Below, piece after piece: positions 2,524 through 17,653 of a DNA stretch of 59,156 nucleotides. The notes under the pieces were generated by a model. That model had not been told where the DNA came from, ran no database searches, and saw only the letters and a list, made by a program, of their open reading frames with translations. Made by a program: the position numbers and the translations under genes. Every line of letters starts with the position of its first letter. The first letter of the stretch is position 1. This DNA is from Ignavibacteria bacterium. GTDB taxonomy: Bacteria > Bacteroidota > Ignavibacteria > Ignavibacteriales > Ignavibacteriaceae. Location: NCBI GenBank assembly GCA_011052365.1, contig DRJC01000200.1:1-59156 (forward strand), read 5' to 3'.

Positions 2524-3879
2524 ATGGTTACAAAAATATTACTAATAGATGATGAAGAGCTTTTCAGAGAAGATTTTGCACTTCTACTTAGGAATGAAGG
2601 ATATAAATGCCTGACTGCCGCATCTGCTGAAGAAGGTCTTGAAACAGTTAAAAACGAATTCCCCGATATAATTTTTGCCGATATAGTAATGCCCGGTAAA
2701 AGCGGGATAGATATTTTGGAAGACATTAACAGAATAAATTCAGAAGGTTCCATAATAATAATGACCTCATACGGCACATTAGAAACTGCGATAAAGGCAT
2801 TCAGATTCGGAGCTATAGATTATATTTTAAAACCAATTGAGTTTGAAGAAGTATTAATTAAAATTGAAAGAATTATTCAGCACAAAAAATTATTAAATGA
2901 AGTAAAATTTTTAAGAAAAGAAGTTTTTGAAAACGCCGAAGAATTTTCTTTTGTGGGTAAAAGTGAGCCTATAAAAAACGTGAAAGAACTGATAAATAAA
3001 GTGGGACCTACAAACAGTACAGTGTTGATTAATGGAGAATCCGGTACCGGGAAAGAAGTGGTTGCCCAGGCAATTCACCAAGTAAATGATAATGCAGATA
3101 AACCGTTTATTGCAATAAATTGTTCAAGTCTACAGGAAAATTTATTAGAAAGCGAGTTGTTCGGACACGTTAAAGGAGCCTTTACAGGTGCTATTAAGGA
3201 TAAAGTAGGTTTTATGGAAGCGGCAGGAGAAGGCACAATATTTTTGGATGAAATCTCAGAAATACCGATAACTTTGCAAAGCAAACTACTGAGAGTTTTA
3301 GAACAAAGAGAATTTTATAGAGTAGGCGGAACAAAAAAATTTCCGTTAAACGCAAGAATAATTACATCCACAAATCGTAATTTAAAGGAAAGTATAAAGA
3401 ACGGTGATTTTCGTGAGGATCTATTTTATAGAATCGCTGTTTTTGAAATAGATTTAGTACCTTTAAGAAAAAGGATAGAAGATATTCCATTATTAATAGA
3501 ATATTTTATAAAAAAGTTTAATAATGAAATGAAGAAGAAATATATTAGTGTTTCTTCCGATTCTATGAAAGCTATGATGAATTATAATTGGCCTGGCAAT
3601 ATTAGAGAACTACGCAATGTAATAGAAAGAGCAATGATTTTGTGTGATGACAAAACAATTACACTAAACGGATTACCTTCCCAAATAAAAGGCACTGCAC
3701 AAATAGCTAACAAATCAAAAAGTCTAAAAACCACAATTAATCTCTATGAGAAATCCTATATTACGCAAATTCTGAAAGAAAACAACTGGAACAAAGAAGA
3801 AACTGCAAGAATACTAGAAATTAATTCTTCAACGTTGTACAGAAAAATAACTGAATTAGGAATTTCTGAAGAAAATTAA
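2524..3879 (+). CDS. Sigma-54-dependent response regulator (REC + AAA+ sigma-54 interaction domain + Fis-type HTH; NtrC family)
   Basis: REC domain (ILLIDDE...FADIVMPGKSG). Walker A GESGTGKE, ESELFGH, GAFTGA sigma-54 contact loop. C-terminal HTH ETARILEINSSTLYRKI. Confidence 0.93.
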   Translation: MVTKILLIDDEELFREDFALLLRNEGYKCLTAASAEEGLETVKNEFPDIIFADIVMPGKSGIDILEDINRINSEGSIIIMTSYGTLETAIKAFRFGAIDYILKPIEFEEVLIKIERIIQHKKLLNEVKFLRKEVFENAEEFSFVGKSEPIKNVKELINKVGPTNSTVLINGESGTGKEVVAQAIHQVNDNADKPFIAINCSSLQENLLESELFGHVKGAFTGAIKDKVGFMEAAGEGTIFLDEISEIPITLQSKLLRVLEQREFYRVGGTKKFPLNARIITSTNRNLKESIKNGDFREDLFYRIAVFEIDLVPLRKRIEDIPLLIEYFIKKFNNEMKKKYISVSSDSMKAMMNYNWPGNIRELRNVIERAMILCDDKTITLNGLPSQIKGTAQIANKSKSLKTTINLYEKSYITQILKENNWNKEETARILEINSSTLYRKITELGISEEN

Positions 3880-3895
3880 GACAACACATAAAACT

Positions 3896-3951
3896 CACTA
3901 CTCTTTATGCAAATAAAGTAACTTTGTATAAGTAACTCTTGCAAAATTGCA
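3896..3951 (+). promoter_or_regulatory. Candidate upstream activator sites for the NtrC-type regulator (two related copies)
   Basis: CACTACTCTTtaTGCAAA at 3896-3913 and AACTCTTGCAAAA at 3934-3946; the second runs into the perfect palindrome TGCAA-aa-TTGCA (3940-3951). The 12-mer ACTCTTGCAAAA recurs at 6214-6225 in the paralogous intergenic region. Confidence 0.45.
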
Positions 3952-4038
3952 AAATATTTGTAACTCTCTCTAAAAAGAAATCCTCCTAACTAATTTAATA
4001 ATAATAAATTACATAGATTTAGCTTTCCATTTTAATAA

Positions 4039-4054
4039 TGGCACAGTGGTTGGT
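4039..4054 (+). promoter_or_regulatory. Sigma-54-like -24/-12 promoter candidate (TGGCAC-N5-TTGGT)
   Basis: TGGCACagtggTTGGT has GG-N10-G spacing as in the TGGCAC-N5-TTGC consensus, but the -12 position reads GG instead of GC. It lies 70 nt upstream of the ATG at 4109 and directly downstream of an NtrC-type activator gene. Confidence 0.4.
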
Positions 4055-4108: not shown

Positions 4109-4537
4109 ATGAAAAAAACAAGATCGAAACTAACCATTTTAACAGCCGTAACTGTTGCAATAGTAGCCATATTGTTCTTTTCAATTGATAATTTTGGAAA
4201 TCCGGGCGGAAGTAATTGGAAAGTACCCGGTGTAGCTAAAAAACTTAAAAACCCTGTTCCTTCTTCAAAATTATCCATCAAATTAGGTGAAAAATTATTC
4301 GTACAAAACTGTGCAACCTGCCATGGAGAAAGTGGTGTCGGTGACGGGCCCGTAGGTAAATTCTTAGGAAAGAAAGTTGCCGATTTAACATCTAAGGCAG
4401 TACAGAGTCAAGTAGACGGTGTGATATTTTATAAACTTACCAAAGGCAGAGCTCCGATGCCCTCTTATAAAACAATATTAAATACAAAACAACGCTGGTC
4501 TGTTATTAATTACATTAGAACACTTAAATCTAACTAA
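4109..4537 (+). CDS. Class I monoheme c-type cytochrome, N-terminally membrane-anchored or secreted
   Basis: N-terminal hydrophobic helix, single CATCH heme motif, downstream Met ligand region (GRAPMPSY). AGAGGA Shine-Dalgarno before the ATG. Clear paralogue of the 6390-6869 product. Confidence 0.85.
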   Translation: MKKTRSKLTILTAVTVAIVAILFFSIDNFGNPGGSNWKVPGVAKKLKNPVPSSKLSIKLGEKLFVQNCATCHGESGVGDGPVGKFLGKKVADLTSKAVQSQVDGVIFYKLTKGRAPMPSYKTILNTKQRWSVINYIRTLKSN

Positions 4538-4560
4538 TCATAAATACGGAGAAAAATAAA

Positions 4561-5688
4561 ATGAAAAGAATTCGTTTTATACTGTTTTCGGCATTGGCAA
4601 TTCTCATTGGCTCTGCTACTCAAAATCCGGCTCAAGAAAGTACTGACTTACAGAGTCAAATTCAAAAATTTCAAGCAGGTACTCATCAGTTTATGCTTGC
4701 TGGATATGCAGTTACAAGCTTTATAAAGGAAGAAGGCAATCCTTCACAATTTGAAAGTGCCTTTATGCCAATATTCTTATTTAAGGCAACAGATAAAGTA
4801 TTTTTTGAAGGTGAATTAGAAATAGAAATTGAAGATGGAGCTCAAGAAATGAATCTTGAATATGGGCAAATATTGTATTTATTTAGTGATTACCTGATTT
4901 TTGGTGCCGGAAAATTTCTTAATCCCACAAACTATTTTATTGAAAGGTTACATCCGGCTTGGATAAATAAAATGCCTGACAAACCTTTAATGGTACATCC
5001 GGGTACAAGAATGCTGGCCAGCCAACATTTAGGATTTCAATTAAGGGGTGCAGTACCTATTAAGGGTAGCAAAATAGAATACTCTTTCTTTGTTGGGATG
5101 GGACCTGTATTAGACCCTGCAACAGGTGAAGTAACATTTACAAATTATGGAGATAATAACGATAACAAATCTATTGGCGGAAGAATAGGTTTTATACCTA
5201 TTCCAAAATTTGAAATCGGATATGGTTTTGAAGTTGCTAAAGTAGGCGATGCAAATACAAATTTAGAAAGTGTTAAAGCAATAAACAATGTAGTAGATTT
5301 TTCATATGCTAAAGAAATAAAAGGACTAAAGGGCGGAGTAGATTTAAAAGCTCAATTAGTATGGCTAAATATTGATAATCCAAATATTGCACCATTAATT
5401 TACAGTAATGACTCATTTGGCGGTTATGCTCAAATTTCGTTCCGTCCATACAACTCACCAAGTGAATTCTTTCAAAATTTAGAATTCGTTTATCGTTATG
5501 ACTGGAGTGACAAACCGAATAAAGCTCCATCAAATGAATATATTAAAAGGTCTGGTTTTGGCATTAATTATTGGTTAACTTCAAGCAGCCTATTTAAATT
5601 TGCTTATGAAACATCTAATATCGATTTACCTAACGGAAGTACAACTAATGAACACCGTTTTATTGGTCAAGTTGCATTTGGTTTTTAA
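4561..5688 (+). CDS. Putative outer-membrane beta-barrel porin, no heme motif
   Basis: Signal peptide (ALAILIGSATQNPAQE), alternating hydrophobic/polar strand pattern, Gly/Tyr/Asn-rich. C-terminal ...GQVAFGF ends in Phe (OMP signature). No CxxCH. Confidence 0.6.
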   Translation: MKRIRFILFSALAILIGSATQNPAQESTDLQSQIQKFQAGTHQFMLAGYAVTSFIKEEGNPSQFESAFMPIFLFKATDKVFFEGELEIEIEDGAQEMNLEYGQILYLFSDYLIFGAGKFLNPTNYFIERLHPAWINKMPDKPLMVHPGTRMLASQHLGFQLRGAVPIKGSKIEYSFFVGMGPVLDPATGEVTFTNYGDNNDNKSIGGRIGFIPIPKFEIGYGFEVAKVGDANTNLESVKAINNVVDFSYAKEIKGLKGGVDLKAQLVWLNIDNPNIAPLIYSNDSFGGYAQISFRPYNSPSEFFQNLEFVYRYDWSDKPNKAPSNEYIKRSGFGINYWLTSSSLFKFAYETSNIDLPNGSTTNEHRFIGQVAFGF

Positions 5689-5708
5689 TTATTTAGGAGA
5701 AAACAAAA

Positions 5709-5984
5709 ATGAAATTGAAAAGGAAATACATAACCGGTTTTTTACTTGTTTTAGGCTTTTTTGTAGTAGTGGCTATTTCAGGTTGTGCATCTACAACTGA
5801 CATTGCCGATAGATCGGGTGCTGAATTATGGGGCAATAACTGCGCTAGTTGCCATAATATCCGTCCACCCCAGACTTTAACAGACGCACAATGGGAAGTT
5901 GCTGGAATTCATATGAGAACAAGAGCTAATCTTACAGGCGTAGAAACTAATAAAATAATAGAATTCTTAAAAACGGCTAACTAA
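5709..5984 (+). CDS. Small monoheme c-type cytochrome lipoprotein
   Basis: Lipobox VAISGC, single CASCH motif, 91 aa. Starts 20 nt after the barrel gene. Confidence 0.75.
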   Translation: MKLKRKYITGFLLVLGFFVVVAISGCASTTDIADRSGAELWGNNCASCHNIRPPQTLTDAQWEVAGIHMRTRANLTGVETNKIIEFLKTAN

Positions 5985-6010
5985 TTAGGGATTCTATTTG
6001 ACTCAAAAAG

Positions 6011-6040
6011 ACCGGGTGACAAAACCATCCGGTTTTTTTA
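6011..6040 (+). terminator. Rho-independent terminator closing cytochrome/porin module 1
   Basis: ACCGG...CCGG stem followed by TTTTTTTATTTT. Confidence 0.6.
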
Positions 6041-6209: not shown

Positions 6210-6235
6210 CACTACTCTTGCAAAAATGCGAGAGT
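6210..6235 (+). promoter_or_regulatory. Candidate upstream activator site, paralogous to 3896-3951
   Basis: CACTACTCTTGCAAAA contains the same 12-mer ACTCTTGCAAAA (6214-6225). It is embedded in the imperfect inverted repeat ACTCTTGC-aaaaat-GCGAGAGT (6214-6235). Confidence 0.45.
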
Positions 6236-6319: not shown

Positions 6320-6335
6320 TGGCATTAAAGTTGAT
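6320..6335 (+). promoter_or_regulatory. Sigma-54-like -24/-12 promoter candidate (TGGCAT-N5-TTGAT)
   Basis: Same block spacing as 4039-4054. Lies 106 bp downstream of the shared 12-mer and exactly 70 nt upstream of the ATG at 6390. The -12 position reads GA rather than GC. Confidence 0.4.
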
Positions 6336-6389: not shown

Positions 6390-6869
6390 ATGAACAAAAA
6401 AACGGTCTCAAGAAGTTTGCTAATATTGGCTGCAACTATAATATTCTTTGCGTCCCCAACAATAAATGCGCAGACCAATAATTGGAAAGCTCCAAAAATT
6501 GCTGATAGACTTAAAAACCCATTAAAAGGAGATCTTTCAGCGGTTAAAAAAGGCAAAGAATTATTTGATATAAATTGTGTTACTTGCCACGGTGCAAAAG
6601 GATTAGGAGATGGTATTGCAGCATCAAGTTTATTTCCAAAACCTGCAAATTTAACTTCTAAAGAAGTTCAAAAACAATCTGACGGTGCTATTTATTATAA
6701 GATTACAAAGGGAAAAAACGCCATGATATCATGGAAGTATTCATTATCAGAAAAACAACGCTGGCAATTAGTTAGTTACATAAGGGAATTAGTACCTCAT
6801 AAGGCAAAGGTTAAAGTTAAAAAATCAACAGCCAAAAATGTAAAACTTAAAAAGAAAACTAAGATATAG
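6390..6869 (+). CDS. Class I monoheme c-type cytochrome (paralogue of 4109-4537) with a Lys-rich C-terminal tail
   Basis: Signal peptide ending INAQT, CVTCH motif, NWKAPK...LKNP... aligns with the 4109 product. The ORF track starts at TTG 6375; ATG 6390 is preferred because it reproduces the 70-nt promoter-ATG spacing of the paralogue. Confidence 0.85.
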   Translation: MNKKTVSRSLLILAATIIFFASPTINAQTNNWKAPKIADRLKNPLKGDLSAVKKGKELFDINCVTCHGAKGLGDGIAASSLFPKPANLTSKEVQKQSDGAIYYKITKGKNAMISWKYSLSEKQRWQLVSYIRELVPHKAKVKVKKSTAKNVKLKKKTKI

Positions 6870-6928: not shown

Positions 6929-8263
6929 ATGAATAATATTTATAAAACCAAAATTCAATTTATAGCTATTGCTGCTCTTATACTATCTTTTATAATTCCA
7001 GAAGAAGCATCAGCCATACCAAGTTTCTCCCGCCAAACAAATCTGCCTTGCAGCACTTGTCACTACAAATTTCCCGAATTAAAACCTTTCGGCAGATTAT
7101 TTAAATTGAACGGTTATACAATGACAGGTGTAGCATCTATTAAATCAGCCAATAATGACAAAATAAATCTCCAACTCTTAAAATCACTACCAATTTCGGT
7201 AAGTTTTCAAACATCATATACTTCAGTAGCTTCAAAAGTTCCTGACAATCAGAACAACACGTTTGAATTTCCACAAGAATTAGGTATCTATTTTGCAGGA
7301 GAAATTACTCCTCATATTGGTGCTTTTATTCAAATTAGTTATGAAGATCAAGAAGGTTCAATTGGATTAGATATGACGGATATTCGTTACGCTAATCATA
7401 CATCTATTGACAATAAAGATTTATTATACGGAGTTAGTTTAAACAACTCACCAACAATGCAAGACGTTTGGGGTACCGTACCAATGTGGTCTTATCCATT
7501 TGTTGGTTCAGGCACAGCTCCTACACCAATGATCAGCACCATGTTAGAGTCTATGATGAACGTATTGGGTTTTGGAACGTATGTGTTGTATGACAACTTC
7601 ATATACGCTGAAGTAAGTGCTTATCGTTCTGTTGTACAGGGAGGACCTATACCTCCAAATGCATCTTCGTCTAATACAATCAGTGCCCTTGCACCATATT
7701 GGAGATTAGCGTTACAGCATCAATGGGAAAATCAATATATTGAAGTTGGAACATACGGAATGGCTCCACAGATTTTTCCTAGTGGGATTACAGGAAAAAA
7801 AGATAATTATACAGACTTCGCATTAGATGCACAATATGAGAACTCGTTCAATAACGGTAGTCTAATAACACATTTTAATTACATATATGAAAAACGGAAT
7901 TTAAATGCCACTTATGCTTCCGGTGGTTCGGCTAGCTTATCAAATACTCTTAATTCTCTAAAAGTTGATGCGGGTTATAACTCTAATGCGGGTTACTCAT
8001 TTACTGTTGGGTACTTCAATATAAATGGAGATGCCGATAACAAATTATACGCACCTGCCCAGGTGGAAGGAAGCGTTAGCGGTTCGCCGAACAGTAACGG
8101 ATTTACATTGCAGGCAACTTTAGCCCCTTGGCTTAATACTCAATTCTCATTGCAATATGTATTGTATAATAAATTTAACGGTTCAAGCGATAATTACGAT
8201 GGGAACGGAAGAAATGCATCCGATAATAATACTTTGTATGCAAATGTATGGCTTATGTTCTAA
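6929..8263 (+). CDS. Fused monoheme cytochrome-porin (Cyc2-like architecture)
   Basis: Signal peptide (…EEASA), then IPSFSRQTNLPCSTCHYKFPELKPFGRLFKLNGYTMTG with a single CxxCH at residues ~41-45. About 390 aa of Gly/Tyr/Asn/Ser-rich beta-strand-like sequence follows, ending ...NVWLMF (terminal Phe). Confidence 0.65.
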   Translation: MNNIYKTKIQFIAIAALILSFIIPEEASAIPSFSRQTNLPCSTCHYKFPELKPFGRLFKLNGYTMTGVASIKSANNDKINLQLLKSLPISVSFQTSYTSVASKVPDNQNNTFEFPQELGIYFAGEITPHIGAFIQISYEDQEGSIGLDMTDIRYANHTSIDNKDLLYGVSLNNSPTMQDVWGTVPMWSYPFVGSGTAPTPMISTMLESMMNVLGFGTYVLYDNFIYAEVSAYRSVVQGGPIPPNASSSNTISALAPYWRLALQHQWENQYIEVGTYGMAPQIFPSGITGKKDNYTDFALDAQYENSFNNGSLITHFNYIYEKRNLNATYASGGSASLSNTLNSLKVDAGYNSNAGYSFTVGYFNINGDADNKLYAPAQVEGSVSGSPNSNGFTLQATLAPWLNTQFSLQYVLYNKFNGSSDNYDGNGRNASDNNTLYANVWLMF

Positions 8264-8351
8264 TATTAAATTTATCGTCTGAATTTTTATTATCAAATGA
8301 TAATAAAGTTTTTAAAAGCGATTTATTAACAAGAACTTAAATTTCAATTCT

Positions 8352-8382
8352 AAAACGACCGGATTTTTTCGGTCGTTTTTTT
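8352..8382. terminator. Bidirectional hairpin terminator between convergent genes
   Basis: AAAACGACCG-gatttttt-CGGTCGTTTT, with A-run and T-run on either side. Confidence 0.65.
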
Positions 8383-9577
8383 ATGTCTGATTTTTAGCCA
8401 CTTGTAGTATTTTAGGCAGATAATAAAGACTTAAAATAAAAATGATTGCTGTAAATGCAGCACCGGTTAAGAAAGGATATTGATAACCGATATATTCAAA
8501 AGCAAAGCCGCCCCACAAAGGACCCAATACTCTTGCAAACGCTGAGAAAGATTGGTTGACACCGAGGGTAAATCCCTGTTCGCTTTCGGACGTGTTCTTA
8601 GATATCAGGCTTAACATTGTCGGTTGAAGACTTCCACTACCCAAAGCAAGTATAATCGTTACAAAAATAAGTCCGGTCATGTTACCGGCATACGGTACCA
8701 TTGCAAGACCAAGCATCATAAGAAATGATCCGGCGACAATAATCTTTTTATCATCCATATATTTTGATATAACACGCAGCAGTCCACCTTGAACTATAGC
8801 TGAAACAATACCGATAATACCGAACATAATACCGTTTTGCATATCGGTAAAGTGATATTTTTTATAACCGATTAATGCAAATGTTCCGTATATGTTTGCG
8901 ATTGAGAAAACAAGAATAAAAAACATTATAATAAGTGATGCTAATTTATTGTTTCTAAACAATAATTTTACGGCAGGTATGTCAATTAATTTTCTTGTCT
9001 TAATCCTAATTCCATCTTTAATTTTTTTCAAAGATTCGGGTAAGAAAAAGATAGTAAATAAGAAGGCAATAAATGAAAAAGCAGCACTTGCAAACCCTGT
9101 TACCTCATATCCGTATTTTGAAAGGAATCCTCCTATAATTGGTCCGAATACAAATCCCAAACCAAAAGCAGCTCCAATCATACCCATTCCTTTGGAGCGA
9201 TCTTCTTTTGATGTAACATCAGCTATATATGCTTGAGCAACGGCAACACTACTGCCACCAATTCCGGCAACTATACGCGATACTAACAGCAGCAAAAAAG
9301 AATTTGTAAATGCAAAAATTATATAACCGACGGCATTTAGAAACAGACAACCTATAATTATAGGACGCCTTCCTACTCTGTCCGAAAGGTTACCAAGGAT
9401 AGGACCTAAAAGAAATTGAGTAAGCGAATAAACCGCAAGTACAATTCCGATTGAGAATTCGCTTAAGTTTAATTTGATAGTGGCAAAGGTTGGTAAAATG
9501 GGTATAAGAATACCGAAACCTAAGAGGTCTATAAAAACCGTAATAAATATTAATGAAAGTGAAGCTTTTCTGTTCAA
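8381..9577 (-). CDS. MFS transporter (12-TM, TetA/drug-H+ antiporter-like)
   Basis: Hydrophobic throughout. MFS motif A-like GNLSDRVGRRP between TM2 and TM3. TTG start codon. Confidence 0.85.
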   Translation of the reverse strand: MNRKASLSLIFITVFIDLLGFGILIPILPTFATIKLNLSEFSIGIVLAVYSLTQFLLGPILGNLSDRVGRRPIIIGCLFLNAVGYIIFAFTNSFLLLLVSRIVAGIGGSSVAVAQAYIADVTSKEDRSKGMGMIGAAFGLGFVFGPIIGGFLSKYGYEVTGFASAAFSFIAFLFTIFFLPESLKKIKDGIRIKTRKLIDIPAVKLLFRNNKLASLIIMFFILVFSIANIYGTFALIGYKKYHFTDMQNGIMFGIIGIVSAIVQGGLLRVISKYMDDKKIIVAGSFLMMLGLAMVPYAGNMTGLIFVTIILALGSGSLQPTMLSLISKNTSESEQGFTLGVNQSFSAFARVLGPLWGGFAFEYIGYQYPFLTGAAFTAIIFILSLYYLPKILQVAKNQT

Positions 9578-11125: not shown

Positions 11126-13132
11126 TTATTTAGTGTTTTCCAATATTATTTCAGCTATATCTTTTACTTTAACTTCTTCTGACTTTTCAAAATGTTTAAC
11201 ACCGTCTGTAATCATTGTCATGCAAAAAGGACAAGCAGATGCAATAGTATCAGCACCGGTTGCCAAGGCTTCTTTTGTCCTTTCAATGTTGATTCTTCCT
11301 CCTTCCTCATCTTCAAGAAACATCCTTCCACCGCCTGCACCACAGCAAAATCCACGTGTTTTGTTCCTTTTCATTTCAATATAATTGATTTTTTCGACTT
11401 TTCCCAATGAATTTCGAGGAGAATCAAAAATATTATTATATCTGCCTAAGTAGCAAGAATCGTGATAAGTAACATCCATAGCTGTTTCATCCACATTATC
11501 ACTCAATTCCAATTTACCTTCATTCAGCATTTCTTCAATTAATTCAGTGTGGTGAAGCACCTCAAAGTTTCCGCCGAACTGTTTATATTCATTTTTTAGC
11601 GAATGAAAACAATGCGGGCAAGCAGTAACTATCTTTTTAACGTTATAACCATTCAGCTTTTCTATGTTGTCCTTCATCAAAGTTTGGGCAAGATATTCGT
11701 TACCCAATCTTCTTGCAGTATCACCGTTACATTTTTCTTCAGTTCCTAAAATTCTAAAATCAATATTACCCTTCTGCATCAGTTTGGCAAAAGCTTTTGT
11801 AACCTTTTGATAGCGTGCATCAAAAGAACCTGCACAACCCACCCAAAATAGAATCTCACCATCCGAATCTTGAGCCATAGTTTTTATGTCCATTCCTTCC
11901 GCCCAGTTGGCTCTGTCAGCAGAGTTAAAAGCCCAGGGTGTATAGTTTGTTTCAAGGCTTTTAAATACATTATTTAAATTTGATGGAAATTGAGCTTCAG
12001 TAAGTACAAGGTCTCTTCTCATATCAACTATAGAATCAACGTGCTCAATCATAACCGGACACTCTTGTACACACGCCATACAAGTTGTACACTGCCAAAG
12101 ATTTAAATCGGGTATATAATCGTGTACCAACGTTTTGCTCATCACCTCTTCATTCTCAATTCCGTTAGCGAGCAAATGGGCTTTATCCTTTGTACGTTTT
12201 CTTATTTGCACTATTACTTCTCTCGGTGAAAGCGATTTACCAACAGTAGCAGCCGGACAAACAGATTCACATCTTCCGCATTCCGTGCAGGAATATCCAT
12301 CCAGAATTTGTTTCCAGGAAAGATGTTCAATGTCTGCTACGCCAAAAGTTTCCAGATTTTCATCTTCTAAATCTATAGGTTTTAGAGTATTTCTAACATC
12401 GCTTAAATTGGAAAAGAAAGTATTCGGAATTGAAGTTAACACGTGTAAGTGTTTTGAATATGGTAAATAATTTAAAAAACCTAAAACTACTACTATGTGC
12501 ATCCACCAAAAAACTTCGTGAGCCGTACCTGCAGCTCCTATATTGCCTGAGTATATTAGCTTACTCAACGGCAATGCAATAAAATTCATTTGGTTGGGAA
12601 GAAGGTTAAAATTATTTTGGGCAATTAATGCCGTACTTTGCCCGAACATTGAAAGTACAACGAGAAAAATTAATGAAAGAATAAGTAAGGCATCAAGTTT
12701 ACCGGCTTTACCCACTTCCAGCCTTGGTACTTTAATAACTACTCTCCTGTATATTGCAACAAGTACAGCAAGCATTACAAGAGCACCAAAAATATCTTCT
12801 ATAAAAGTTACAAGGCTGTAGAAAAAGCCGGTCGATTCATAGTTAAACGACGGAAAGAAACCCTGGATTAATGCTTCGACAACGGCAAAAAGGAAGAGTA
12901 AAAAACCCCAAAATATAAGTGAATGCAAAATTCCTGCTAACCGGAAACGGAATAATTTTTTTTGACCTATCGCATATTTTAATACATTAAGTAACCTTGT
13001 TCCGATTTTGTTTAATCTGTTATCTGCTTTTTTTGCAACGAACATATAGCGGATTAAATTTCTGGAGCTATAAAAGAAAAATCCGAATGCTAAAATAAAT
13101 ATGATTAAAAAAACTATGTTCTTTGTGTCCAT
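11126..13132 (-). CDS. Membrane-bound (Fe-S) oxidoreductase: NarI/DsrM-like heme-b membrane domain fused to an HdrD/DsrK/GlpC-like 2x[4Fe-4S] + CCG domain
   Basis: About 5-6 N-terminal TM helices with conserved His. Ferredoxin motifs CTECGRCESVCP and CTTCMACVQECP. Two Cys-rich CCG-type regions (…VGCAGSF…, …FCCGAGGG…CPFC). Confidence 0.8.
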   Translation of the reverse strand: MDTKNIVFLIIFILAFGFFFYSSRNLIRYMFVAKKADNRLNKIGTRLLNVLKYAIGQKKLFRFRLAGILHSLIFWGFLLFLFAVVEALIQGFFPSFNYESTGFFYSLVTFIEDIFGALVMLAVLVAIYRRVVIKVPRLEVGKAGKLDALLILSLIFLVVLSMFGQSTALIAQNNFNLLPNQMNFIALPLSKLIYSGNIGAAGTAHEVFWWMHIVVVLGFLNYLPYSKHLHVLTSIPNTFFSNLSDVRNTLKPIDLEDENLETFGVADIEHLSWKQILDGYSCTECGRCESVCPAATVGKSLSPREVIVQIRKRTKDKAHLLANGIENEEVMSKTLVHDYIPDLNLWQCTTCMACVQECPVMIEHVDSIVDMRRDLVLTEAQFPSNLNNVFKSLETNYTPWAFNSADRANWAEGMDIKTMAQDSDGEILFWVGCAGSFDARYQKVTKAFAKLMQKGNIDFRILGTEEKCNGDTARRLGNEYLAQTLMKDNIEKLNGYNVKKIVTACPHCFHSLKNEYKQFGGNFEVLHHTELIEEMLNEGKLELSDNVDETAMDVTYHDSCYLGRYNNIFDSPRNSLGKVEKINYIEMKRNKTRGFCCGAGGGRMFLEDEEGGRINIERTKEALATGADTIASACPFCMTMITDGVKHFEKSEEVKVKDIAEIILENTK

Positions 13133-14762: not shown

Positions 14763-15122
14763 ATGCCTGAAGAAAAAGACCTAATATGTGAAACAACTTT
14801 TATTGATGAAAACAAAGTCAATAGAGTGAAAAAACAATTACCCGAAGAAGATATTCTGTTGGGATTATCTGAAATTTTTAAAGTCTTAGGTGATTCTACT
14901 CGATTAAAAATTTTATTATCGATTTCATATACTGAACTTTGTGTGTGTGATATCTCTGCTTTAATTGGAGTATCTGTTTCTGCAATATCACATCAATTAA
15001 GATTGTTGAAAAATTCACGTTTAGTTAAATACCGAAAAGAAGGTAAAATGGTTTATTATTCTTTAAAGGATGATCATATAAAAAGTATAGTGAATGAAGC
15101 AAGGAAACACGTTGAAGAATAA
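14763..15122 (+). CDS. cadC: ArsR/SmtB family metalloregulator, CadC-like
   Basis: ELCVCDISALIGVSVSAISHQLRLL carries the alpha3 thiolate site plus wHTH. There is an additional N-terminal Cys (LICE). It is followed by a P1B-2 ATPase. Confidence 0.8.
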   Translation: MPEEKDLICETTFIDENKVNRVKKQLPEEDILLGLSEIFKVLGDSTRLKILLSISYTELCVCDISALIGVSVSAISHQLRLLKNSRLVKYRKEGKMVYYSLKDDHIKSIVNEARKHVEE

Positions 15123-15197
15123 ATGGAAATACAAATCTCTATAAAATTACAGTATTAATAACCGAAGTGAAATCTCAACTTATAAAAGGATCATTAT

Positions 15198-15548
15198 ATG
15201 AAATATATTCCAAAACTTATTTTACCGCTTTTAATTATTACGATTATCGGAATAGTTTATTACAGTTACTTTAAACCGAATGATGAATTGGGAAATTTTA
15301 GCAAATTTAATACCGGTAGTGAAATTAATCAGAAAATTAACGTAGCAATAGTTAGAACTAAGATGATGCGAGAAGATGCAAATGGAATGATTATTTCTTT
15401 TGTTGCAAAAGATAAAAATAATGTAGAGGTGATTGTTAATATACGCGAACCGGCTCCTGAAAAAATTATGAATGCAAAGGTGATTGAACTTTTGGGACAT
15501 TTACACAAAGAGGGTTTCTCCGCTGTGAGAGCCACAATAATCAGGTAA
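15198..15548 (+). CDS. Small membrane-anchored protein of unknown function (tentatively CcmE-like OB-fold)
   Basis: One N-terminal TM helix followed by ~85 aa of beta-rich sequence. Sits between the regulator and the ATPase. No heme-binding His/Tyr tail seen. Confidence 0.35.
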   Translation: MKYIPKLILPLLIITIIGIVYYSYFKPNDELGNFSKFNTGSEINQKINVAIVRTKMMREDANGMIISFVAKDKNNVEVIVNIREPAPEKIMNAKVIELLGHLHKEGFSAVRATIIR

Positions 15549-15553
15549 GATAA

Positions 15554-17653
15554 ATGAAAAATTATAAATTAAAAAATATGAGCTGTGCATCCTGTGCAGC
15601 AAAGATTGAAGATGGAGTTGCAAAATTAGAAGGAGTAAAATTTGTTTCCGTTAACTTTGCAGCTTCAACAATTAAAATCGAGACCGACAATATAGAAAAA
15701 GTAAAAAAGAAAATAAAACAAATTGAACCGGATGTAGAAATAGTTGATGAAACTTTAAACCGGGAAGAAACAGAAGATAAGTTCAGTATAAAAAAAGAAC
15801 TCTTCAAGATTACAGTGATTATAGCACTTTTAATTGTAGCCATAATATATAAAGATTCGTTGCACAATACTACCTATTCTATTGCAGAATATATTGTTTT
15901 TATTTCTATATACCTGCTGAGCGGATGGAATGTTTTAAAAACTGCGGGAAGAAATATTATAAGGGGACAGGTTTTTAACGAACAATTTCTGATGTCCATT
16001 GCAACTTTGGGAGCCTTTGCTATCCACGAAATGCCGGAAGCTGTTGCCGTTATGGTGTTTTTTAATGTCGGTGAGTTTTTTCAAAATCTTGCAGTACATC
16101 GCTCACGAAGATCAATTAAAAGTTTATTGGAAATACGACCCGATTCCGCCAACGTTTTTATAAACGGCGAAGTAAAGGAAGTCTCACCGGATGAAGTTAA
16201 TGTTGGAGATAAAATATTAATTAAACCCGGAGAAAAAATTCCTTTAGACGGTGATGTACTGGAAGGAAAGTCAATGGTTGATACTTCTGCGCTTACAGGT
16301 GAGTCCGTTCCGCGTCACGTTAAAAAGGGTGAGCCCGTTATGGCCGGTATGATTAACAAATCAGGCACATTAACTGTTATTGTAAAAAAACTGTTCGGTG
16401 AATCTTCCATCTCAAAAATTTTGGACCTTGTTGAAAATGCAACATCTAAAAAATCAAAGACAGAAAAATTTATAACAAAGTTTGCCCGTTATTACACACC
16501 CGCCGTTGTTATAGGTGCAATTCTCGTTGCAGTATTACCTCCACTATTGTTTGAGGGACAGTTGTTTTCTGTGTGGATATACAGGGCATTAATTATGCTT
16601 GTTGTTTCCTGCCCTTGTGCTTTGGTTATTAGTATTCCCCTCGGTTATTTTGGTGGTATCGGCGGGGCATCACATAAGGGGATATTGGTTAAAGGTTCTA
16701 ATTATTTGGATACGCTTACTGAAATTAAAGAAGTGGTCTTTGATAAAACCGGGACACTAACAAAAGGTGAATTCAAAGTCTCCGAAATTATTCCAAATAA
16801 TAATTTTAATAAAGATGAAGTTTTAGAACTTGCAGCTTATGCCGAATCTAATTCAAATCATCCGATAGCACAATCTATTATAGAAGCATACAATGGAAAT
16901 ATTAAGCAACAAGAAATTGTCAAAGTTTCAGAGATTGCCGGACAAGGAATTGAAGCAAGGGTGGACGGCAGAATTATTATCGCCGGCAACGATAAACTTC
17001 TTCACAATAAAAATATTACACACGATAAATGTAATATAGAAGGAACAGTAGTTCATATTGCAGTAGATAACAAGTATGCGGGTTACATTGTAATTTCAGA
17101 CAGTATTAAAGAAGACTCCGTTACAGCCATTAAAGACCTAAAGAAACTGGGCGTAAAAAAAACGATTATGCTTACGGGAGATAATTCTTTTGCCGCTAAA
17201 AAAATAGCTGATAGTTTAAACATTGATGAATTCTATGCGGAATTATTACCTGAAGATAAAGTAAAGTATATAGAAAAATCACTATCTCAAGCCGGGAAAA
17301 ATGAAAAGATTGCCTTTGTTGGTGACGGTATAAACGATGCACCTGTTTTAGCTCGTGCTGACGTTGGAATAGCAATGGGCGCACTTGGTTCCGATGCTGC
17401 GGTAGAAACTGCCGATGTGGTTCTTATGAATGATACCCTTGCGAGCGTTCCTATGGCAATAAGAATTGCTAAAAAAACCCGCAAGATAGTTTGGCAGAAT
17501 ATTATTTTTGCTCTCGTTGTAAAACTGCTGTTTATAATTCTTGCAGCATTCGGTATAGCAACAATGTGGGAAGCGGTATTCGGCGATATGGGTGTGGCAT
17601 TAATTGCAATTTTTAATGCTATGAGAGTAAGAAATATTCAGAATAATCTTTAA
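15554..17653 (+). CDS. cadA: P1B-2-type heavy-metal (Zn/Cd/Pb) translocating ATPase
   Basis: N-terminal HMA domain MSCASCAAKIE. TM6 SCPCALVISIP (CPCx4SxP), DKTGTLT, SNHPIA, GDGINDAP. TM7 Nx7K (NIIFALVVK) and TM8 DxGx7N (DMGVALIAIFN) are the signatures of the P1B-2 subgroup. Confidence 0.93.
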   Translation: MKNYKLKNMSCASCAAKIEDGVAKLEGVKFVSVNFAASTIKIETDNIEKVKKKIKQIEPDVEIVDETLNREETEDKFSIKKELFKITVIIALLIVAIIYKDSLHNTTYSIAEYIVFISIYLLSGWNVLKTAGRNIIRGQVFNEQFLMSIATLGAFAIHEMPEAVAVMVFFNVGEFFQNLAVHRSRRSIKSLLEIRPDSANVFINGEVKEVSPDEVNVGDKILIKPGEKIPLDGDVLEGKSMVDTSALTGESVPRHVKKGEPVMAGMINKSGTLTVIVKKLFGESSISKILDLVENATSKKSKTEKFITKFARYYTPAVVIGAILVAVLPPLLFEGQLFSVWIYRALIMLVVSCPCALVISIPLGYFGGIGGASHKGILVKGSNYLDTLTEIKEVVFDKTGTLTKGEFKVSEIIPNNNFNKDEVLELAAYAESNSNHPIAQSIIEAYNGNIKQQEIVKVSEIAGQGIEARVDGRIIIAGNDKLLHNKNITHDKCNIEGTVVHIAVDNKYAGYIVISDSIKEDSVTAIKDLKKLGVKKTIMLTGDNSFAAKKIADSLNIDEFYAELLPEDKVKYIEKSLSQAGKNEKIAFVGDGINDAPVLARADVGIAMGALGSDAAVETADVVLMNDTLASVPMAIRIAKKTRKIVWQNIIFALVVKLLFIILAAFGIATMWEAVFGDMGVALIAIFNAMRVRNIQNNL

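Follow-up and report, generated by a model that had tools for sequence, protein, structure and literature searches.

A widespread pairing of a heme-less outer-membrane barrel with monoheme cytochromes c as a candidate redox porin

To our knowledge, the established couplings of outer-membrane barrels to hemes are of only two kinds, the multiheme wires of the Mtr and Pcc type and the fused cytochrome-porin Cyc2. In the rus operon of Acidithiobacillus ferrooxidans, Cyc2 is combined with Cyc1, a cupredoxin and an aa3 oxidase. Cyc2 is the Fe(II) oxidase of Acidithiobacillus, Zetaproteobacteria and Gallionellaceae, and its signature consists of the motif AXPXFAR[Q/K][T/Y] upstream of the CXXCH heme motif and of PXL four residues downstream (Keffer et al. 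2021, PMC8406198); in models of Cyc2, an acidic tunnel leads to the heme (bioRxiv 10.64898/2026.01.22.701106). Here, we describe a three-gene unit (the triad) at positions 4109–5984 of a 59,156-nucleotide stretch of DNA from an Ignavibacteria bacterium (contig DRJC01000200.1; this whole stretch is called the window), in which the gene for a heme-less outer-membrane barrel lies between genes for two monoheme cytochromes c. We propose, with a confidence a little short of even, that the three gene products work together at the outer membrane as a single conserved functional unit acting on a redox-active metal cation.

All three genes are read from the forward strand. Gene 1 (4109–4537) encodes a 142-residue class I monoheme cytochrome c (CATCH; PF00034, expectation value (E) 5.7e-11), whose hydrophobic N-terminus has no obvious cleavage site and would serve as a signal anchor or signal peptide. 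Gene 2 (4561–5688) encodes a 375-residue protein with a signal peptide, no cysteine anywhere and the C-terminus ...VAFGF, which AlphaFold2 models as a 16-strand barrel of porin fold. Gene 3 (5709–5984) encodes a 91-residue lipoprotein (lipobox ISGC) in which a short tether carries a minimal domain of the monoheme cytochrome c type (CASCH). Spacers of 23 nucleotides between genes 1 and 2 and of 20 nucleotides between genes 2 and 3 separate the open reading frames, and an intrinsic-terminator-like hairpin at 6005–6039 (+), a 14-pair stem followed by TTTTTTT, closes the unit. An earlier sequence-only reading had described just such a tightly packed set, a class I cytochrome, a barrel with a signal peptide and no CxxCH, and a lipobox lipoprotein with a single CASCH, sharing one terminator, and in each of these respects our analysis agrees with it.

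The pairing of these genes was followed from both of its sides. A barrel-seeded scan of one genome per species (185,579 species) found 450 loci, of which the best 80 were kept, and a gene-3-seeded scan of metagenome contigs found 463 loci, with 70 kept loci that have at least 400 nucleotides of upstream sequence. Among the 80 loci chosen by the barrel alone, all 80 carry a gene 3 homologue within 400 nucleotides downstream of it; among the 70 chosen by gene 3 alone, 69 carry a barrel directly upstream, and the single locus without one has only 446 nucleotides of upstream sequence. The expectation that this barrel family would always have a small lipoprotein cytochrome beside it is thus borne out from either side and, because the reciprocal scans pair them in this way, genes 2 and 3 are an obligate pair. 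Gene 1 is an almost constant companion of this pair: of the loci with room for it, 59 of 74 (tblastn) and 36 of 39 have a gene-1-like cytochrome upstream of the barrel, and methanotroph loci without an apparent gene 1 carry a more divergent PF00034 cytochrome at that position. About nine phyla are represented among the best 80 loci, with members from Bacteroidota/Ignavibacteria, Calditrichota, KSB1, Lentisphaeria and Verrucomicrobiota, Planctomycetota, Acidobacteriota, Krumholzibacteriota, gammaproteobacterial methanotrophs and Nitrosomonas, and the three-gene arrangement, recurring across them, is more than chance.

In 5 of 77 loci, the gene-1-type cytochrome and the barrel are a single protein, the cytochrome being joined N-terminally by way of a coiled-coil region. 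The carriers of this fusion (proteins P0017, P0024 and P0038; loci L005, L052, L065, L070 and L076) belong mostly to Verrucomicrobiota, and their domains follow the order cytochrome c, Pro/Ala-rich linker, coiled coil, barrel, with the cytochrome at the far end of the presumed periplasmic stalk. The planctomycete locus L070 is also a variant in another respect, as a 277-residue diheme cytochrome (8085–8915) directly follows its barrel and the best gene-3-type match lies about 2 kilobases (kb) further downstream of that cytochrome.

Gene 2 itself has no match in Pfam or NCBIfam, even at E 1, and its family profile, searched against the sequences of the PDB, retrieved no solved structure, the only hits being coiled-coil noise from an N-terminal extension present in many homologues. 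An AlphaFold2 model built on a 116-sequence family alignment (predicted local distance difference test score, pLDDT, 90.6; predicted template modelling score 0.84) shows sixteen transmembrane strands. Foldseek matched this model to generic 16-strand trimeric porins of the PDB with template modelling (TM) scores of 0.5–0.62 and 9–15% identity, among them OmpC, OmpU/T, OmpK36, Omp32, OmpM1 and DcaP; OprP and OprO rank only 27 and 40, behind these general porins. The gene 2 protein is probably trimeric.

Two features of the barrel stand out for their conservation. Between strands 5 and 6 of the model lies a 34-residue segment with a short helix (residues 121–154), which occupies the same position as loop 3 of classical porins, the loop that folds into the lumen; nothing else in the gene 2 family is as strongly conserved as this segment (ERLHPAWINKxPD; best motif ERLHPAWINKLPD). 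Strand 3 reads FFEGELEIEIED, and its glutamates E83, E85, E87, E89 and E91 are 84–99% conserved. Since they alternate with hydrophobic residues, we infer that these glutamates would face the lumen and form an acidic ladder; further near-invariant residues are E100, D246, E308, R312, D314, R330 and K346. An arginine/lysine ladder gives OprP its anion (phosphate) specificity, and the glutamate ladder of gene 2, as predicted here, is the charge mirror of that arginine ladder. With five glutamates along its lumen and an invariant constriction loop, gene 2 should, on the natural reading, conduct cations rather than phosphate. The suggestion that it is not an ordinary phosphate porin is upheld by this predicted ladder and by the missing Pfam, NCBIfam and PDB sequence matches.

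In approximately 60% of gene 2 homologues, the sequence is longer at the N-terminus than that of the window protein, by 30 to 250 residues and typically by about 60–80, and this extension scores as coiled coil. In its model, the window protein retains only a short helix of this stalk region, at residues 28–36.

The two cytochromes carry one CXXCH each, within KLFVQN-CATCH-GESG in gene 1 and SGAELWGNN-CASCH-NIRPPQ in gene 3. Gene 3 gives only sub-threshold cytochrome c matches in Pfam and NCBIfam, and a profile search of 1.84 billion representatives gathered a family of 1536 representative clusters. The family motif is G-A-x-L-W-x-x-N-C-x-R-C-H-N ... W-E-V ... H-M-R-x-R-A-N-L-T ... I-x-E-F-L-K, in which HMR is invariant, and the heme domain that it spans is only about 55 residues long. 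A lipobox cysteine is present in approximately 62–68 of 79 homologues, separated from the heme domain by a low-complexity tether of 3 to 35 residues, and Asp occurs at position +2 in none of the 62 scored lipobox homologues, sorting rules not being established for these phyla. The predicted structure of gene 3 has a three-helix core (pLDDT 71.6); Foldseek found no meaningful match to it in the PDB, the model being without heme and retaining the signal peptide. At the sequence level, the PDB entries 3CU4, 3DP5, 5MCS and 6U97 match with E of 0.19–1.8 over the heme motif only. The best 150 gene 3 relatives are all 60–232 residues long and are either stand-alone or tandem diheme proteins; tandem two-domain cytochromes of 205–232 residues include P0314, P0360, P0364, P0376 and P0393. 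A SorAB-type sulfite dehydrogenase was considered and rejected: gene 3 is weakly SorB-like (E 0.006), and no SorA-like enzyme is found among the conserved neighbours.

For the genomic context of the triad, the open reading frames around the best 80 of the 450 loci were clustered and annotated with Pfam. Among the clustered neighbours of these 80 loci, the triad has no conserved catalytic partner, whether a molybdo-, a copper- or a multiheme enzyme. Because such an enzyme is missing, the cytochromes themselves would have to react with the substrate, which favours metal ions, since monoheme cytochromes are capable of reacting with these directly. Heavy-metal genes, mostly of copper type, occur near the triad in 18 of the 80 loci, in at least four phyla. 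CusCBA-like pumps lie on either side of it in methanotrophs, Opitutus, Flavobacteriaceae and Calditrichaceae, and P1B ATPases are also found, of which the one examined in detail, that of L019, has the CopA-type residues YN and MxxSS. HMBD, YHS and CopB domains likewise occur, HMBD being the most frequent Pfam family among otherwise unannotated neighbours.

Lineage-specific electron-transfer modules adjoin the triad in 39 of the 80 loci, with NrfC/NrfD-like quinol-side pairs in about 20 loci of Planctomycetota, Chitinophagaceae and Opitutae, and a pair consisting of an FMN_bind-heme protein and an NqrF-like protein in 9 methanotroph loci. The latter pair lies downstream of gene 3 (L015, L016, L018, L019, L025, L029, L030, L043 and L055); its first member is a membrane protein of about 515 residues with one CXXCH and a C-terminal FMN_bind (NqrC/RnfG-like) domain, and its second is an NqrF-like Fer2/FAD/NAD(P)H 2Fe-2S protein. 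In L019 and L043 the whole set stands just downstream of a CusCBA-like pump, followed in L019 by a CopA-type ATPase. In eight Planctomycetota loci (L040, L042, L044, L047–L049, L051 and L066), three further proteins accompany the triad, namely a COX3-cytochrome c fusion, a 606-residue diheme cytochrome with an EB_dh domain, and a cupredoxin-like protein of 257 residues with a type-1-copper-like C-x2-H-x2-M motif and a CarboxypepD_reg domain. In Chitinophagaceae (L057, L063, L067, L069 and L078), the triad is embedded in a long operon that also encodes an HMBD-repeat protein, an HMA-AraC regulator, His-rich and Met-rich small proteins, an NrfC/NrfD-like pair, and a membrane-anchored immunoglobulin-like protein of about 200 residues with a weak bMG3 match.

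A copper link within the window itself was also sought and rejected, as the P-type ATPase at 15554–17653 is of Zn/Cd type and has an ArsR/SmtB regulator. The stretch 14763–17653, which comprises this ArsR/SmtB metalloregulator, a 116-residue membrane protein and the Zn/Cd-type P1B ATPase, is a divalent-metal efflux unit. About 5 kb from the two cytochrome modules of the window, a reverse-strand gene (11126–13132) encodes a 668-residue membrane protein whose multi-pass domain lies at the N-terminus and whose Fe-S/CCG domain lies at the C-terminus; it is a possible quinone-linked oxidoreductase and resembles TfrB, LdhH and DsrK, all below cut-off.

The second of these modules directly follows the triad on the forward strand. 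It opens with a periplasmic monoheme cytochrome c at 6390–6869 (PF13442, E 1.4e-13) that is a clear paralogue of gene 1, as the sequence-only reading had noticed (46% identity, E 1e-39), continues with a 444-residue protein at 6929–8263 and ends at a terminator-like hairpin at 8352–8379 (+). The 444-residue protein reads AIPSFSRQT-NLP-CSTCH-YKF-PEL, which is the Cyc2 signature with one A-to-S change; the consensus of its family, which comprises more than 2683 clusters named 'cytochrome C' by their sources, is PSFARQT. With a signal peptide, the motif, CXXCH, PXL and a length of at least 365 residues all present, module 2 is, as judged by these sequence features, a Cyc2-type fused monoheme cytochrome-porin together with its periplasmic cytochrome. 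We compared the family of gene 2 (116 sequences) with that of the Cyc2-like protein (33 sequences) using hhalign, which returned a probability of 0.3% and hence no relationship, in line with the earlier caveat that the two barrels are not obviously homologous. The accompanying idea, that the window holds a fused and a split version of the same thing, is not supported, given that the barrels show no detectable homology. Nor do triads in general have a Cyc2-type gene beside them: of the 160 other loci, L007 alone gave even a weak Cyc2-like match, which lies on the opposite strand at a distance of about 5 kb from the triad. For module 1, "split Cyc2" would therefore hold as an analogy only.

Within the window, the two modules appear to be linked by regulation. 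Upstream of the triad, and likewise on the forward strand, are genes for a sensor histidine kinase (793–2514) with a multi-pass N-terminal membrane domain and PAS, HisKA and HATPase domains assigned by Pfam, and for an NtrC-family sigma-54 enhancer-binding response regulator (2524–3879; receiver domain, Sigma54_activat with E 3e-67, and HTH_8). Homologues of the kinase occur near the triad in 25 of the 80 loci, as do homologues of the activator, the latter in several phyla; an attempt to name the pair was abandoned, its similarity to AtoSC, ZraSR and NtrBC being sub-threshold in NCBIfam. An activator-site-like palindrome, ACTCTTGCAAAATTGCAAA, precedes module 1 at 3935–3953 (+), and a second copy, ACTCTTGCAAAAATGCGAG(AGT), precedes module 2 at 6214–6232 (+). 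Each is followed by a sigma-54-type -24/-12-like element: TGGCACAGTGGTTGGT at 4039–4054 (+), 104 nucleotides downstream of the first palindrome and 55 nucleotides upstream of the gene 1 ATG, and TGGCATTAAAGTTG at 6320–6333 (+), 106 nucleotides downstream of the second. Within the 59-kb window, the palindrome pattern ACTCTTGCAAAAWTGCRAG matches only twice, where 0.05 matches would be expected, and TGGCAY-N5-TTG likewise matches only twice, at 4039 and 6320. Palindrome and sigma-54-like element alike are conserved ahead of the gene 1 orthologues of L001 and L003, and consensus-like sigma-54 elements are found 3' of the activator gene in several other related loci. Because these pairs of elements precede both modules at matching spacing, the kinase and activator probably switch on module 1 and the Cyc2-type module together from sigma-54 promoters, as one regulon. 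This regulatory link between module 1 and Cyc2 is local to the window.

How might the parts of the triad work together? We propose that a redox-active metal cation would pass along the acidic ladder of gene 2 and be oxidised or reduced at the periplasmic mouth of the pore by the heme of gene 3, which would be held there on a short flexible tether, usually with a lipid anchor. Gene 1 would then relay electrons between gene 3 and the inner-membrane modules or respiratory chain, in most organisms as an anchored or free protein and in some as a fusion to the barrel stalk. Our analysis shows the gene structure, the porin fold, the strict linkage of the genes, the fusions, the families of neighbours and the promoter architecture common to both modules; the selectivity for cations, the position of gene 3, the substrate and the way in which electrons flow are what we infer. 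Copper suits most of the related loci and the kinds of neighbour that recur around the triad, and iron fits the Cyc2 neighbour in the window. The NqrF-like and NrfCD-like partners suggest outward flow, for instance a reduction of Cu(II) to Cu(I) that would supply Cus pumps specific for Cu(I); where the partners are oxidase-like or Cyc2, an inward flow is suggested, with oxidation of Cu(I) or Fe(II). In its full form, the triad may thus represent an unrecognised and widespread class of 'redox porin', a minimal outer-membrane Cu(I)/Cu(II) or Fe(II) oxidoreductase that arose independently as a two-piece analogue of Cyc2, a proposal that we make tentatively and that we would sooner expect to fail in some part than to hold as a whole.

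Several observations weigh against the mechanism proposed here. Metal genes stand near only those 18 of the 80 loci, and in the window the only nearby P-type ATPase, 9.5 kb away and of Zn/Cd type, lends copper no support. The conserved pore residues of gene 2 include no Met or Cys, one or the other of which is usually used by Cu(I) sites, and the neighbouring electron-transfer modules point in opposite directions of flow. Contact between the gene 2 and gene 3 proteins is putative, and no barrel-gene 3 fusion is found among the best 150 matches of the gene 3 profile. In about 10 homologues of gene 3, the lipobox cysteine is missing and a plain signal peptide takes its place. As for the regulatory elements, the -12 element at 4039 reads TTGG where the consensus is TTGC, and both -12 elements deviate from consensus.

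The coupling between barrel and cytochromes could also be functional only, gene 2 being a specific channel for a small solute and the cytochromes ordinary periplasmic carriers that form no defined complex with it. This would suit a barrel with the fold of diffusion porins, cytochromes that look like six-coordinate electron carriers, and respiratory neighbours such as the NrfCD-like proteins, COX2/COX3 and diheme cytochromes. However, as no catalytic subunit is conserved with the triad, the cytochromes would still have to react with the solute, which again favours metal ions, and the cytochrome c-barrel fusions argue for physical proximity; we regard such loose coupling as unlikely, albeit deserving of serious attention.

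Alternatively, the triad could be a conduit across the outer membrane, in which the heme domain of gene 3 plugs into gene 2 and exchanges electrons at or beyond the cell surface, just as the heme domain of Cyc2 is thought to be plugged into its barrel and MtrA into MtrB. The strict pairing of genes 2 and 3, the adjacent and apparently co-regulated Cyc2-type module in the window, and the 16-strand barrels with acidic interiors of both Cyc2 and gene 2 would all be in keeping with a conduit. Against this, the loop-3-like segment, the most conserved part of the family, sits at a lumen-filling position in the model, and sixteen strands leave little room for a domain of 55 residues and its heme. Tether length, moreover, varies widely and the lipid anchor is missing from some homologues, as would rather be expected of a domain that moves about in the periplasm, and the gene 3 relatives noted above include no fusion to a barrel. 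Given only sixteen modelled strands and a long, conserved segment at the lumen-folding position, a heme inside the gene 2 barrel is unlikely, as is the docking of gene 3 within the barrel that the sequence-only reading had entertained, and we consider a conduit improbable. Least credible of all is that the barrel serves mainly as an outer-membrane anchor or scaffold, with the N-terminal coiled coil setting the height of the cytochrome in the periplasm and the pore irrelevant: the stalk-like extension of most homologues, the fused cytochrome at its far end and the structural matches to DcaP and OmpM1, both of which have periplasmic stalks, speak for a scaffold, but the gene 2 protein of the window is nearly stalkless and yet keeps its triad, and conservation is strongest in loop 3 and at the charged residues that face the lumen rather than along the stalk.

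Should the redox-porin proposal be correct, the triad would be a third, modular coupling of barrels to hemes, and would change how the potential for iron and copper cycling is read from genomes. It is found in at least 450 species-level genomes, including those of copper-dependent methanotrophs and ammonia oxidisers, and electron exchange with metal ions would extend to Planctomycetota, Verrucomicrobiota, Bacteroidota/Ignavibacteria, Calditrichota, gammaproteobacterial methanotrophs and Nitrosomonas. Heme-plus-porin rules of the FeGenie type would miss it, because the barrel lacks a heme motif and no curated model recognises the small cytochrome. With a barrel of 375 residues and a mature cytochrome of 65 residues, the triad would also offer a small and tractable system for studying how a pore and a heme cooperate, and it is a candidate for an oxygen-independent means of shifting periplasmic copper between redox states beside Cus-type efflux pumps.

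We found no description of the triad in the searchable literature on porins with monoheme lipoprotein cytochromes, on copper together with cytochromes and porins, or on cupric reductase, in agreement with the earlier impression that no such system was known to have been characterised. The sources name its members 'hypothetical protein', 'c-type cytochrome' and, once, 'OprO/OprP family porin'. The nearest literature concerns an MtrAB-type cluster in Methylobacter and the modelling of Cyc2 (bioRxiv 10.64898/2026.01.22.701106), neither of which describes the triad.

Among porins, OprP and OprO (PF07396; PDB 2O4V and 4RJW) share with gene 2, as modelled, the 16-strand porin fold (TM 0.60–0.62) and a ladder of like-charged residues along the pore, and about 12 of 120 listed gene 2 homologues carry a weak precomputed PF07396 match, so a distant relationship is possible. 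In contrast to OprP and OprO, the gene 2 protein of the window has no PF07396 match at E up to 1, and general porins fit its fold at least as well; its ladder consists of glutamate rather than arginine, which implies the opposite ion selectivity, and it has obligate cytochrome partners. MtrAB, MtoAB and PioAB and the Pcc systems of Geobacter have in common with the triad an outer-membrane barrel gene beside genes for c-type cytochromes, as well as a link to inner-membrane modules on the quinol or NADH side. Their barrels, however, have 20–26 or more strands, compared with sixteen in gene 2, and their cytochromes are octa- to decaheme, whereas those of the triad are monoheme, so that no heme wire can span the membrane. 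OmcF and the domains of PgcA, both from Geobacter, resemble gene 3 in being small lipoprotein c-type cytochromes with a flexible tether, and the case of PgcA shows tethered diffusion to be a workable means of electron transfer for single-heme domains (PMC11520253). Their sequence similarity to gene 3 is marginal (E 0.02–1.8, heme motif only), gene 3 is much smaller and, unlike them, it is always encoded beside a dedicated porin.

At the level of domain families only, the triads of Planctomycetota repeat the pattern of the rus operon, with a barrel, cytochromes, a blue copper protein and an oxidase; this oxidase/cupredoxin arrangement is lineage-specific, however, and absent from the window. 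Cyc2 itself shares with module 1 the combination of one heme with a 16-strand porin-like barrel, for both of which an acidic interior has been proposed, and a class I periplasmic cytochrome encoded before or after the barrel; in the window, moreover, a Cyc2-type gene adjoins the triad and is apparently co-regulated with it. Unlike Cyc2, module 1 has its barrel and heme on separate proteins, gene 2 being cysteine-free and not part of a single polypeptide with an N-terminal CXXCH, and genes 1 and 3 are without the AXPXFAR[QK][TY] motif. Gene 2 also retains a loop-3-like constriction, which places the heme probably outside the barrel, and the recurrent context of the triad consists of copper and heavy-metal genes with varied electron-transfer modules rather than of known iron-oxidiser loci. 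Module 1 thus resembles a porin-cytochrome system in outline, but is a separate and modular solution.

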